IMG/VR virus record: IMGVR_UViG_2706794492_000018
Length of the DNA stretch: 8,565 nucleotides
Strand: one strand, 5' to 3'
DNA from: a virus
Lineage: Duplodnaviria; Heunggongvirae; Uroviricota; Caudoviricetes
How positions within the stretch are numbered: the first letter of the stretch is position 1; each line of letters begins with the position of its first letter. Positions 11-4,396 of the stretch are shown here, one piece after another. The notes under the pieces were generated by a model, which saw only the letters and a program-made list of their open reading frames with translations, ran no database searches and was not told where the DNA came from. The position numbers and the translations under genes were made by a program.

Positions 11-259
11 TCAGGCTGTACGCTTACGAGCTACTGATGTATCAACACGATTCAACAATACCCGATATTTATTCCATGCCTCCAGCAACGATCTTTCTTC
101 CTCCGTTGCGATTTCCAGATCTACAGCATCCTGCAGTGGCGCAATATACTCACTGAATTCCTGGATGTAGAACTGTGTGGTGACGGTCTTCCAGCCATTC
201 GGCTCCTGCTGTATCGCAGCATACCAGGCTATTTCAATATCGCTATGCTGCGGCAGCAT
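11..259 (-). CDS. Small tail-fibre-assembly (Tfa) C-terminal-domain-like ORF, 82 aa; probably a chimeric tfa remnant
   Basis: Residues about 38-76 ([38 protein letters not shown]) closely match the C-terminal conserved block of the intact Tfa at 3815..4396 ([38 protein letters not shown]). The N-terminal 38 aa and the last 7 aa are unrelated to that Tfa. DNA homology is confined to 35..155. Could be a pseudogene or a standalone small protein. Confidence 0.5.
35..155. repeat. Direct repeat copy A (tfa 3'-segment homology), 121 bp
   Basis: Hand alignment with 3857..3977 shows 12 mismatches in 121 positions and no gaps, including a 40-bp perfect core (tttcttcctccgttgcgatttccagatctacagcatcctg). 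Same orientation as copy B. Flanks on both sides diverge. Confidence 0.85.
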
Positions 260-327
260 TTAACCCCTTGTAATTCATCGCCATAATTGATTTAATTCAC
301 AAATAAAACTATAACATGGTGAAATTA

Positions 328-984
328 ATGAAAAAAAACACAGATGATGGGGCTAAAATTTACACACCACTTACCCTAAAGCTTTATGACTGGTGGGTTT
401 TGGGAGTATCAAATCGTCTTGCATGGGGATGTCCTACAAAGGAACACCTTCTTCCACACTTTCTGGAACATTTAGGTAACAACCATCTGGATATTGGTGT
501 TGGAACTGGGTTTTACCTTACTCACGTACCTGAGAGTAGTCTGATATCTTTAATGGATTTGAACGAAGCTAGCCTGAACGCGGCATCTACAAGGGCTGGG
601 GAATCAAAAATTAAACATAAAATTAGCCATGATGTTTTTGAACCTTATCCCGCGGCGTTACATGGTCAATTTGATTCCATTTCCATGTTTTACCTTCTTC
701 ACTGCCTGCCTGGAAATATATCTACAAAAAGCTGTGTAATACGCAATGCGGCGCAGGCCTTAACTGACGATGGAACTCTATACGGAGCCACAATTCTTGG
801 CGATGGAGTTGTGCACAATAGCTTCGGTCAAAAACTGATGCGCATTTACAATCAGAAAGGCATCTTTTCAAACACAAAAGATTCCGAAGAAGGCTTAACA
901 CATATACTCTCAGAGCATTTCGAGAATGTTAAAACCAAGGTTCAAGGTACTGTAGTAATGTTTTCCGCTTCAGGGAAAAAATAG
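328..984 (+). CDS. Class I (Rossmann-fold) SAM-dependent methyltransferase, substrate unknown
   Basis: ORF track 316..984. Glycine-rich SAM-binding motif I (LDIGVGTGFY), an acidic post-I residue (LMDLNE) and a hydrophobic motif (FDSISMFYLLHCLP). No DPPY/NPPW or PCQ motifs, so not an obvious DNA methyltransferase. I place the start at ATG 328 because GGTGA at 318..322 sits 5 nt upstream as a Shine-Dalgarno; ATG 316 has none. A weak sigma70-like element (ttaacc-N17-cataat, 260..288) lies upstream. AT-rich coding sequence. Confidence 0.75.
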   Translation: MKKNTDDGAKIYTPLTLKLYDWWVLGVSNRLAWGCPTKEHLLPHFLEHLGNNHLDIGVGTGFYLTHVPESSLISLMDLNEASLNAASTRAGESKIKHKISHDVFEPYPAALHGQFDSISMFYLLHCLPGNISTKSCVIRNAAQALTDDGTLYGATILGDGVVHNSFGQKLMRIYNQKGIFSNTKDSEEGLTHILSEHFENVKTKVQGTVVMFSASGKK

Positions 985-990
985 CATCCA

Positions 991-1036
991 ACCGCAGCAC
1001 GTTCTTGCATACGCCGTGTCTGCGGTTTAATTTTTA
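991..1036 (+). terminator. Candidate rho-independent terminator downstream of the methyltransferase
   Basis: Inverted repeat accgcagcacg (991..1001) / cgtgtctgcggt (1015..1026) with a one-base bulge and a 13-nt loop, followed by ttaattttta. Begins 7 nt after the TAG stop at 982..984. Confidence 0.45.
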
Positions 1037-1394
1037 CTCTCAAATATTGTAGTTAAGTACAATAATGATTCCTGTGGCTATATAGATGTTTTTGTAATTA
1101 GTCCTTAAGATAAAATTTCTCTATTTATCCAAGAAACAGACTTCATTAGGAAGAGTCGTAAAAACATTAACAACTACCGCCGTGTAATTAAATTATTTTT
1201 TAGAATGTTCTGATTGAGAAAAACAACGCCATACACATCAAAAGATATAGAAATGTAAATTTAGATTTATTAATCTTTTGAGTTACAACCTAAACTTTCC
1301 GTTAATCACCAAGATATCAACAGATTATACTCACTGAGTACACATTTTTACAATTGCTATTTCTCACATTAAGATGCGCATACCAATCTCTTAT

Positions 1395-1473
1395 TTGACA
1401 CTTTCTTATTTGTTACTAGAGTTAATTGGGTGCTGACAAGGCACATGTTATTTACAATTTGAAAATCAGAGGA
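1395..1473 (+). promoter_or_regulatory. Candidate promoter and ribosome-binding region for the yciG operon
   Basis: TTGACA at 1395..1400 with a possible -10 tagagt about 16 bp downstream; a second -10-like tacaat at 1453..1458; AGGAG Shine-Dalgarno at about 1469..1473, 8 nt before ATG 1482. Sits at the end of an AT-rich intergenic region of about 500 bp. Homologous yciG operons are sigma-S dependent, but the exact promoter cannot be fixed from sequence. Confidence 0.25.
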
Positions 1474-1481
1474 GAAATGAT

Positions 1482-2243: not shown

Positions 2244-2279
2244 ACTATAGACTTCAATTTCTTTTAGGATAAACAGATT

Positions 2280-2786
2280 ATGAATAGAATTGAACATTAC
2301 CATGACTGGCTTCGTGATGCACATGCGATGGAAAAACAAGCTGAAAAAATGCTTGAGTCTATGGCCAGCCGGATAGAAAACTATCCTGAGTTACGTTCCA
2401 GAATTGAGCAGCACATTAGCGAAACAAAGAACCAGCTTTCACAGCTTGAAAGCATACTTGATCGTAATAATATTTCGCGCTCTGTCATTAAAGACTCTAT
2501 GAGTAAAATGGCCGCGTTTGGACAATCCATTGGTGGAATTTTTCCATCTGATGAAATTGTCAAAGGTTCGATCAGTGGCTATGTGTTCGAACAATTTGAA
2601 ATTGCGTGTTACACATCTCTTCTCGCAGCAGCCAAAAATGCGGGTGATACAGCTTCAGTACCCATTATTGAAGCAATTCTTAATGAAGAAAAACAAATGG
2701 CTGAATGGCTTCTTAACCATATTCCTGACACCACTGAGCAATTCATGGTCAGATCTGAAATTGATGGAGTTGAAGCCAAAAAATAA
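2280..2786 (+). CDS. yciE: DUF892 ferritin-like stress protein YciE
   Basis: 168 aa, N-terminus MNRIEHYHDWLRDAHAMEKQAE, paralogous fold to the preceding gene (FEQFEIACYTSLL motif). Shine-Dalgarno aggat upstream. Confidence 0.9.
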   Translation: MNRIEHYHDWLRDAHAMEKQAEKMLESMASRIENYPELRSRIEQHISETKNQLSQLESILDRNNISRSVIKDSMSKMAAFGQSIGGIFPSDEIVKGSISGYVFEQFEIACYTSLLAAAKNAGDTASVPIIEAILNEEKQMAEWLLNHIPDTTEQFMVRSEIDGVEAKK

Positions 2787-2804
2787 TTCTTTTGAGGAGG
2801 CATT

Positions 2805-3695
2805 ATGTTTAGACACGTGAAAAAACTTCAATATACAGTACGTGTAAGTGAGCCAAACCCAGGCTTGGCTAATCTACTCTTAGAACAATTCGGTGGGCCA
2901 CAGGGTGAGCTTGCAGCAGCATGCCGATACTTCACTCAAGGCTTAAGTGATGAAGATGCAGGCCGAAGGGATATGCTGATGGACATAGCAACAGAAGAAC
3001 TAAGTCATCTCGAAATTATTGGTTCTCTTGTTGGTATGCTCAACAAAGGTGCAAAAGGAGCACTTGCTGAAGGAACTGAGAATGAAGCTGAGCTTTACCG
3101 TTCCTTAACTCAAAATGGCAATGATAGCCATATAACTTCTCTCCTCTACGGAGGAGGCCCAGCATTAACTAATTCAGCTGGAGTACCCTGGACTGCAGCT
3201 TATGTTGATACTATTGGCGAAGTCACGGCCGATCTTCGTTCAAATATTGCAGCTGAAGCTCGGGCAAAGATCATTTACGAACGTCTCATTAATGTTACTG
3301 ATGATCCTGGAGTAAAAGACACTCTGGCATTTTTAATGACCCGGGAAGCAGCACACATGCTTTCATTTGAAAAAGCATTACATTCAATTCGTAACACCTT
3401 TCCACCAGGAAAATTACCACCACTTGAGAAATACAAAAACGTATATTACAACATGTCAGAAGGTGAAGACGTCAGAGGTAGTTGGAACAGTGATGAAAAC
3501 TTTGACTATGTTTCCGATCCAGTTTCAGCGGTTGACGGTGGGGATGGGAAGGCCTCGATAAATCTTTCGACCAAGCAAGAAGCTATGATAAAAGCTATGG
3601 CAACAAGGTTGAAATCCCATGAAGACATCAATCCTGTCACTGGCGCTGAGCTTGCTGAAGGAGAACCACAAACAAAGATAAATAGTAAAAACTAA
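2805..3695 (+). CDS. katN: Manganese-containing (non-haem) catalase KatN
   Basis: 296 aa with an Mn-catalase family N-terminus (MFRHVKKLQYTVRVSEPNPGLANLLLEQFGGPQGELAAACRYFTQG) and a conserved EELSHLE block. Strong Shine-Dalgarno gaggagg 7 nt upstream. Fourth gene of the yciGFE-katN operon as known from Salmonella. Confidence 0.9.
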   Translation: MFRHVKKLQYTVRVSEPNPGLANLLLEQFGGPQGELAAACRYFTQGLSDEDAGRRDMLMDIATEELSHLEIIGSLVGMLNKGAKGALAEGTENEAELYRSLTQNGNDSHITSLLYGGGPALTNSAGVPWTAAYVDTIGEVTADLRSNIAAEARAKIIYERLINVTDDPGVKDTLAFLMTREAAHMLSFEKALHSIRNTFPPGKLPPLEKYKNVYYNMSEGEDVRGSWNSDENFDYVSDPVSAVDGGDGKASINLSTKQEAMIKAMATRLKSHEDINPVTGAELAEGEPQTKINSKN

Positions 3696-3783
3696 TTATC
3701 TTCTGGTATTTAGCTATCCCTCATAAGTTAATTGCCGCTGAGATATCCTAAGCTCTAGCCTCTGAAAATACATTTATATTTCG

Positions 3784-3817
3784 AAGCCCGCGATATTTTA
3801 AGCGGGCTTTTATTTTA
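3784..3817 (+). terminator. Rho-independent terminator ending the yciGFE-katN operon, between convergent katN and tfa
   Basis: 8-bp stem aagcccgc (3784..3791) / gcgggctt (3802..3809), 10-nt loop, then ttattttaa. The T-tract overlaps the tfa stop codon on the opposite strand. Confidence 0.55.
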
Positions 3818-4396
3818 AACTTCAGGTATTACAGGCCACTCAATATCAGGTGCAGTTGATGTATCAACACGGTTCAGCAACACCCGATACTTTTTCCAGG
3901 CTTCCAGCAATGAGGTTTCTTCCTCCGTTGCGATTTCCAGATCTACAGCATCCTGAAGTGGCGCAATATGCTCACTGGCTACCTGCATCAGGCTGTTTTT
4001 TGTTTCTTCCGCCTCCCGGATCCGGAACAGTTTTTCTGCTTCTGCATCTTTCACCCAGGCTGTGCCGTTCCACTTCTGAAACTCCCCTTCCGGCGATAAC
4101 CAGGTAACATTTTCCGGTAATGAGCCGAGTTCAGAAATAAATAACGCGTCGCCGGAAGCCACGTCATAAACCGTTTTACCCCGATGATCTTCAACGAGAT
4201 GCCACGATGACTCATCACTGTTGAAAACAGCCACGAAGCCAGCCGGAATATCTGGCGGTGCAATATAGGTACTGTTTGCTGGCAGACCTGTATGAGGCGG
4301 AATATATGCGTCACCTTCACCAATAAATTCATTAGTTCCGGTCAGCAGATTATAAATTTTTATGGTCCGTGGTTGTTCACTCATTCTGAATGCCAT
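3815..4396 (-). CDS. tfa: Tail fibre assembly protein Tfa (193 aa), lambda Tfa-like
   Basis: [40 protein letters not shown]-terminus and a C-terminus ending [18 protein letters not shown] are characteristic of lambda-type Tfa chaperones. Its ATG overlaps the stf stop (TAATG at 4394..4398). Lies immediately downstream of stf, as in lambda. Confidence 0.9.
3857..3977. repeat. Direct repeat copy B (inside the tfa 3' coding region), 121 bp
   Basis: Partner of 35..155, same orientation, about 90% identical; lies within the intact tfa CDS. Confidence 0.85.

Follow-up and report, generated by a model that had tools for sequence, protein, structure and literature searches.

Two probable, separately acquired cargo modules at the tail-fibre end of the Escherichia coli O157:H7 prophage Sp8

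The 8565-nt stretch of DNA analysed here (virus record IMGVR_UViG_2706794492_000018, henceforth referred to as the window) is 99.9% identical to E. coli O157:H7 chromosomes, and at least 80% of it is covered in one place in 313 of 5426 complete E. coli genomes, the set to which all genome counts below refer. The window is the tail-fibre/b-region end of the defective lambdoid prophage Sp8 of strain Sakai, known as CP-933X in strain EDL933. Sp8 is devoid of CI and Cro and is neither excised nor packaged (PMC2669165). Next to its tfa gene the window carries an AT-rich cargo, a methyltransferase cassette followed by a yciGFE-katN-like block encoding a Mn-catalase, which lies between two direct repeats of the tfa 3' segment and had been read in the first-pass annotation as a single moron captured between those repeats. 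The analysis instead indicates that this cargo probably consists of two independently acquired modules, stacked by phage recombination at the tail-fibre end of Sp8.

The two parts of the cargo have different distributions. The methyltransferase part was found in 3857 genomes and the 2.8-kb catalase block in 382, with the block adjacent to the methyltransferase in 345. Roughly 70% of E. coli genomes, and viable phages as well, have the methyltransferase-only form. The combined form occurs almost exclusively in one clonal group, with 310 records at 99% identity or more for the whole window and 335 when the block is taken by itself; copies of the block-only type vary more (96–97%). Fourteen sequenced lambdoid phages carry the methyltransferase cassette (167–1031) at about 99% identity; the catalase block was found in none of these 14, nor elsewhere in the phage collection (a search that did not include the plasmid collection).

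The first module was found without the second in E. coli K-12 and in phages. In the K-12 prophage DLP12, annotated in the order tfaD, ybcY (a methyltransferase pseudogene), tfaX, appY and ompT, pairwise BLAST showed 97% identity of window positions 30–1031 to tfaX plus ybcY and of 3833–4250 to tfaD, with only 29 bp in place of 1032–3832. DLP12 therefore resembles Sp8 in having tfa, a convergent ybcY with the same hairpin, a short tfa 3' fragment (tfaX) and, further on, ompT. Unlike Sp8, it has neither the yciGFE-katN block nor an ISEc8 insertion sequence (IS), its ybcY and tfaX are pseudogenes, and tfaX is followed by appY where Sp8 has an alpha/beta hydrolase. Phage ev243 (Nesevirus), read in the orientation of the window, has the order int, ompT, hydrolase, tfa' (left over from the 3' part of a second tfa allele; 101 aa), methyltransferase, hairpin, 99 nt remaining from the 3' end of tfa, and an unrelated tail-fibre cassette. 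Together with its relatives 2G7b, Turner and the PhiR series, it carries the same b-region module at 99% identity to window positions 28–1031, while differing in the lack of the catalase block, in its tail-fibre cassette and in retaining just those 99 nt of the upstream tfa. Homology of the first module (tfa', methyltransferase and hairpin) to K-12 and ev243 covers window positions 28/30–1031, and the far flank of Sp8 (hydrolase to ompT) is 98.8% identical to ev243.

The second module was found alone in prophages of strain 100181 (locus L004), located at ydfJ, and of strain NS-NP030 (locus L005), located at the lambda site beside ybhB and bio. Both have the order J, lom, stf, tfa, katN-yciE-yciF-yciG and then host DNA, without methyltransferase and without tfa'. 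Homology to the window begins at 1019 in L004 or 985 in L005 and extends through tfa into stf; in L005 the lambda attachment (att) core lies at 8600, about 340 bp from the block. A further copy, in strain Z0117EC0098 (L006 8350–9377), is cut within yciE by the end of a P2/Mu-like prophage, whose serine recombinase and inverted tail-fibre/tfa cassettes make up an invertible tail-fibre segment abutting the block locus. Because each module occurs without the other (K-12 and ev243 versus L004 and L005) and the distributions of the two differ, the island appears from these comparisons to be composite, made up of two separately acquired modules, an old b-region module at 28–1031 and the catalase block at 1032–3832.

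The sequences at the junctions point the same way. Natural tfa alleles are alike up to ...APDIEW(P), after which each has its own last four to six codons and its own downstream module: an end in VIPEV-stop goes with the catalase block (O157, L004 and L005), TNPVRE-stop with the hairpin and methyltransferase (K-12 and ev243), and LIQP-stop with the appY side (K-12 tfaX and SFE8). The last five codons of the intact tfa of the window (VIPEV-stop) accordingly belong with the block. The proposal that the conserved tfa 3' segment is a mosaic joint is borne out by this pattern. At the other side of the block stands the hairpin that follows the methyltransferase, which is common to K-12, ev243, L004 and L005 and forms a recurrent mosaic boundary. 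The left flank and left stem of the O157 hairpin (GCATCCAACCGCAGCACGTTCTTGC) match K-12 and ev243, and from the loop rightwards (ATACG.CGTG...TTAATTTTTAC.CTCAAAT) it matches the block-only prophages L004 and L005; about 17 nt are common to all forms. Since the O157 hairpin has this hybrid make-up, the sequence suggests that the modules were joined by a crossover there. The block is flanked by two conserved elements, tfa at one end and the methyltransferase hairpin at the other, rather than by a tfa repeat at each end. Coordinates of all features are collected in Table 1.

Table 1 Features of the window (positions in nt; a dot marks features without strand).
Feature	Position	Strand	Basis or remarks
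ISEc8 (IS66 family), terminal 27 nt, terminus GTAAGCGTACAGCC	1–27	-	Sakai annotation, ISEc8 at L001 9586–12027
8-bp target-site duplication of ISEc8, one copy, AGTAGCTC on the - strand	28–35	.	same octamer at both IS ends
tfa' (ECs_1657), 82-aa open reading frame, putative 3' remnant of a second tfa allele	11–259	-	Caudo_TAP positions 75–121 of 131 only
Direct repeat, left copy (tfa 3' segment)	35–166	.	repeat search and alignment
Methyltransferase cassette; class I S-adenosylmethionine-dependent methyltransferase (316–984), homologue of K-12 ybcY	167–1031	+	Pfam Methyltransf_12/23/25
Terminator-like hairpin after methyltransferase	990–1027	+	fold -18.1 kcal/mol, z -4.9, T-rich tail
yciGFE-katN-like block, 2.8 kb	1032–3832	+	Pfam KGG, DUF892 x2, Mn_catalase; ends with last tfa codons
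AT-rich leader, 29.1% G+C	1032–1481	+	composition
Promoter-like site TTGACA-16-TAGAGT	1395–1422	+	consensus prediction only
yciG-like gene	1482–1664	+	Pfam KGG (PF10685)
yciF-like gene	1737/1743–2243	+	DUF892 (PF05974)
yciE-like gene	2280–2786	+	DUF892 (PF05974)
katN (Z1921/ECs_1652)	2805–3695	+	Mn_catalase (PF05067)
Predicted katN terminator hairpin, then UUUUAUUU (U-tract)	3783–3810	+	fold, z only -1.9
Intact tfa (ECs_1651), 193 aa	3815–4396	-	Caudo_TAP full length
Direct repeat, right copy, within intact tfa	3857–3988	.	repeat search and alignment
stf side tail fibre gene	4396–7317	-	Pfam phage_tail_N, Phage_fiber_2, Collar; Sakai ECs_1650

The minus-strand genes of the window are arranged in the order J, lom, stf and tfa, followed outwards from tfa by five plus-strand genes (katN, the yciE-, yciF- and yciG-like genes and the methyltransferase) and finally by the short minus-strand open reading frame (ORF) of tfa'. 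According to the Sakai and EDL933 annotation, ISEc8, an alpha/beta hydrolase, ompT and the prophage end lie outside the left edge. The description of the enclosed DNA as AT-rich and convergent to the tail genes was confirmed by computed composition and ORF strands: the G+C content is 39.7% in the cargo (167–3832) and 52.8% in the tail genes (3833–8565), third-position G+C (GC3) is 0.25–0.35 in the cargo versus 0.42–0.49 in tfa and stf (0.49 in stf), and all five cargo ORFs lie on the plus strand, with tfa, stf, lom and J on the minus strand. The block taken separately has 39.0% G+C and a GC3 of 0.25–0.33, and so differs in composition from the neighbouring phage genes. The terminators ascribed to the cargo were likewise recovered, as fold predictions, at 990–1027 and 3783–3810.

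The block was identified as yciGFE-katN by its gene order of KGG, DUF892, DUF892 and Mn-catalase on one strand, with all Pfam matches above cut-off, and it is syntenic with the Salmonella, Enterobacter and Klebsiella loci. KatN matches PF05067 over residues 1–270 as a full-length Mn_catalase (291 bits, cut-off 27) and is not a member of the NCBIfam equivalog NF052557 (score 167 versus a cut-off of 350). The methyltransferase, YciG, YciF and YciE matched no NCBIfam family, and no finer functional assignment was obtained for them. The AT-rich leader holds a near-perfect palindrome upstream of the yciG-like gene (1238–1281; 22+22 nt, 82% complementary, no spacer), which could be a regulator site or an H-NS nucleation site. 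In the O157:H7 strain F8492 (NZ_CP038282.1 3142205–3147090; H31/H71) a copy of IS1203/IS629 lies within the cargo region, which is thus subject to ongoing IS activity.

The same locus has been described in enterohaemorrhagic E. coli (EHEC) as the katN operon z1921–z1924 on CP-933X, Z1921 being the ORF at 2805–3695. That paper (Wan et al. 2017, PMC5363993) identifies Z1921 as the Mn-catalase KatN, a protein exported by the EHEC type VI secretion system. Its expression is under positive control of RpoS and OxyR and is silenced by H-NS, loss of hns raising it more than 450-fold. The authors place katN in an operon with z1922–z1924, homologous to Salmonella yciGFE-katN, on the cryptic prophage CP-933X, and credit horizontal transfer; the passages used here say nothing of junctions or tfa repeats, nor of a methyltransferase module or prophages with the block alone.

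Chromosomal yciGFE(-katN) loci of Salmonella, Enterobacter, Klebsiella, Kosakonia and E. coli K-12 (yciGFE only in the last) have the same gene order and families, and their KatN is 80–87% identical to that of the prophage, with the best matches outside E. coli (84–87% aa) in Kosakonia, Phytobacter, Yokenella and Salmonella. They differ from the prophage copy in lying away from phage genes, in their DNA (69–74% identity) and in being less AT-rich. The operon is chromosomal in all 80 other-genus loci, and none of the 80 has Tfa or the methyltransferase within 6 kb. The DNA identity of only 69–74% means that no sampled species is the direct donor, and no near-identical donor was found among 185k species representatives, the best reaching 87% aa and 73% DNA identity. 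Because YciG, YciF and YciE are 93, 80 and 88% identical in protein to those of E. coli itself while the DNA is only 74% identical, and at most 73% identical to other genera, the prophage block is a diverged xenologue with no sampled donor.

Lambdoid morons, the concept of Hendrix and Juhala, and the cargo of the lambda b region are accessory units with their own promoter and terminator and a deviant composition, expressed in the lysogen. The block occupies the non-essential region between tfa and att and is missing from K-12 DLP12 and ev243 at the same position; it is functionally a moron-like unit with its own (predicted) promoter and terminator. It is like other lambdoid morons in being placed between tfa and att and missing from sibling phages, and unlike them in that two units are stacked in Sp8, one with a fossil tfa fragment. 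The first-pass view of the enclosed DNA as foreign cargo, accessory to a lambdoid prophage and placed next to tfa, is upheld, and the cargo was not found at this position in genomes lacking the flanking prophage genes.

The direct repeats themselves are real, although slightly longer than first described: the 121 bp at about 90% identity became 132 nt at 88% (35–166 versus 3857–3988, spacing 3822; family D3 of the repeat search), around a perfect 40-nt core, TTTCTTCCTCCGTTGCGATTTCCAGATCTACAGCATCCTG, seen in pairwise alignment. A direct repeat of such length is far beyond chance, and both copies match Pfam Caudo_TAP. The right copy belongs to an intact tfa, which matches Caudo_TAP over profile positions 1–131 of 131 (153.8 bits) and whose start overlaps the stf stop. 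The left copy does not belong to a complete second tfa, a possibility left standing at first: tfa' is an 82-aa ORF matching profile positions 75–121 only, has no stf upstream and is called a partial pseudogene by PGAP. All tfa' alleles open with 35 residues unrelated to Tfa; IS-free alleles are 89–101 aa long, and some 89-aa alleles retain the whole Tfa C-terminus (...APDIEWPANPVRE). As each repeat copy resembles a natural tfa allele different from that of the other, tfa' is read as the 3' part left behind from an earlier tfa at this place. Its K-12 counterpart tfaX is annotated as 61 aa as a result of a TGG-to-TGA truncation, with tfa homology extending about 60 nt more to ...APDIEWLIQP-stop (L003 10876–11122). 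Nothing mechanistic on tfaX or ybcY was found in the literature.

ISEc8 (2.4 kb, the remainder outside the left edge) cuts off the natural end of tfa' (the 101-aa form), so that the stop codon now falls inside the IS. The uninterrupted target site is present in ev243 and in the non-O157 strain Z1323HEC0475, which has the combined arrangement of block, methyltransferase and tfa' free of the IS; with its own 8-bp duplication, ISEc8 is a simple insertion into tfa'. The idea that ISEc8 sets the left end of the repeat was rejected, as IS-free O157-type tfa' (101 aa) diverges from tfa at the same point (between ...TSVA and LGMKLF...); the insertion lies 0–7 bp from the natural end of homology. In Z1323HEC0475 a degraded second copy of the module (tfa fragment, methyltransferase and ompT) with an integrase fragment adjoins the IS-free arrangement (L090 1–2641), which indicates that prophages integrated at a single site, in tandem or one after another, and that ompT was duplicated.

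The probable history can be outlined as follows. The first module, widespread and old, belongs to the b region of a family of lambdoid phages that carry ompT (DLP12, ev243-like); its tfa' may have been stranded when an out-of-register, non-homologous join set another phage's tfa plus methyltransferase before it; with tfa' stranded in this way, the direct repeat would appear whenever a lambda-type tfa lies upstream. The second is a diverged version of yciGFE-katN, a stress operon of enterobacteria, and is the sole tfa–attR cargo in other E. coli prophages. The O157 form probably arose when a phage bearing the block recombined with a prophage bearing the methyltransferase, through one crossover within the homologous tail genes or tfa and a second within the roughly 17 nt of identity in the hairpin; ISEc8 inserted into tfa' later, in the O157 lineage.

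Several points weigh against this history. The hairpin crossover rests on the short shared sequence and a few diagnostic bases on each side, and only a handful of the 382 block-bearing genomes were examined closely. A full-length tfa with the 35 N-terminal residues of tfa' was not found, the best 120 of 547 matches being only short ORFs or fragments. The promoter is predicted by consensus and the katN terminator by its fold, the latter with a weak z. What supports the order of events is the distribution of the modules and the sequence at their junctions rather than a dated phylogeny, and the combined arrangement could in principle be ancestral.

For the origin of the tfa–methyltransferase–tfa' arrangement alone, a circle carrying a tfa 3' segment and the methyltransferase could have integrated into tfa by a single Campbell-type crossover. 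A single crossover with a circle leaves the homologous segment as direct repeats flanking the insert, which is exactly the layout found, and the perfect 40-bp core could be the crossover or conversion tract. We nevertheless regard this origin as unlikely: the copies share only 88% identity, take after different natural alleles and differ in their C-terminal tails in IS-free strains, so that two alleles from two phages fit better than one duplicated segment, and tfa' opens with 35 codons unrelated to tfa.

That the combined arrangement (tfa, block, hairpin, methyltransferase and tfa') is ancestral, the K-12-type and block-only forms having arisen from it by deletion, would agree with the frequency of deletions in prophages and with a hairpin common to all three arrangements. 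In K-12 and ev243, however, the hairpin is separated from conserved tfa sequence by 35 nt that differ from O157 and include another tfa C-terminus (TNPVRE-stop versus VIPEV-stop), which deletion of 1032–3832 cannot yield, and the combined form is almost clonal where the others are widespread or more diverse. For these two reasons the deletion order is disfavoured and appears quite improbable.

Little credence is given to a functional reading, in which tfa', the C-terminal third of Tfa joined to 35 unrelated residues, is a maintained small gene of the methyltransferase module (for example a truncated tail-fibre chaperone or modulator) or the tfa/tfa' repeats and the shared hairpin form a site of elevated-frequency cassette exchange. 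Maintenance is favoured by an ORF that is open in viable phages (ev243 gp27) and by large protein clusters, P0009 with 514 members and P0015 with 204; counting against it, K-12 has tfa' as a nonsense pseudogene and O157 has it broken by an IS, apparently to no effect. If exchange did occur there, ompT-type lambdoid phages would swap cargo and tail-fibre modules at the tfa/tfa' pair and the hairpin. An invertible tail-fibre segment of the Gin/Cin/Pin/Min type was not recognized, the repeats being direct rather than inverted and the window containing no recombinase.

The first-pass view of the whole 3.7 kb as one moron, gained in a single capture by recombination in the tfa 3' segment with the repeats as its joints, drew on repeats that bracket the cargo exactly, on an AT-rich and co-oriented cargo and on a tfa 3' segment that is a real mosaic boundary. 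It is very unlikely to be correct, given the 3857 versus 382 genomes holding the two halves, the occurrence of each half alone and a left boundary of the block at the hairpin rather than at a tfa repeat. Transposition of the block or of the whole cargo by an IS or transposon can practically be dismissed, for although ISEc8 abuts the cargo and an IS1203 copy lies within it in F8492, ISEc8 is a later simple insertion missing from Z1323HEC0475 and ev243, no transposase lies within the cargo, and no terminal inverted repeats or target duplication were found at 167, 1032 or 3832, whether for 1032/3832 or for 167/3832.

Loss or exchange of the cargo by RecA-mediated recombination between the repeats had also been predicted, and this was supported in part. 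With Sp8-type flanks, both tests were negative: a cargo-deletion junction was found in none of the 5426 genomes, either with the ISEc8 flank or with the IS-free hydrolase flank. With the K-12/appY-type flank, searched with a 600-nt query (an 891-nt version was uninformative, BLAST bridging the 1-kb gap of the native arrangement), a single full-length tfa ran directly into tfaX-downstream DNA in nine genomes, all at the DLP12 locus with a complete J-lom-stf-tfa module. The tfa of one strain, EM18-18-42 (L007), is of tfaD type at its 5' end and of tfaX type after the 40-bp core, including the TGA nonsense codon of K-12 tfaX. It is a bona fide recombinant across the repeats, which could have come either from internal deletion or from recombination with an incoming phage. 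The intact tfa version in SFE8 may represent the pre-methyltransferase state. Lambda is known to exchange DNA with defective prophages via stf/tfa homology, by Red-beta or RecA (PMC3945230). The repeats are by-products and possible substrates of homologous recombination, not a cargo-capturing device; no paper using the phrase 'exchangeable effector loci' was found.

Some further features of the region were noted. Within stf, internal repeats at 5555–5950 and 6154–6744 (three 132-nt units and 42/45-nt periodic Ala/Ser-rich units, about 60% G+C) are usual for side tail fibre shafts and give many spurious long ORFs on the opposite strand. In lom, a run of 20 N at 7466–7485 breaks the ORF artificially (X residues), a masking artefact and not biology; there the window is 68 nt shorter than Sakai (a match of 8633 versus 8565 nt, in two pieces). 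Outside the window, at the end of Sp8 (L001 3432–6197), a fragment of a helix-turn-helix protein, IS629 and a truncated ypjA-like autotransporter precede minE, and the prophage–host junction itself is heavily rearranged.

Overall, the locus is ordinary, already-described lambdoid mosaicism, and no new mechanism or family is implied; beyond bookkeeping it matters little. Within that frame the analysis corrects the idea of repeats delimiting a single mobile island, documents one natural recombinant across tfa repeats, and explains tfaD-ybcY-tfaX in K-12 DLP12, an order long annotated but hard to account for, as an instance of this module. It also shows how the virulence-associated stress operon katN reached an O157 prophage, which was probably by being stacked onto an older cargo module.

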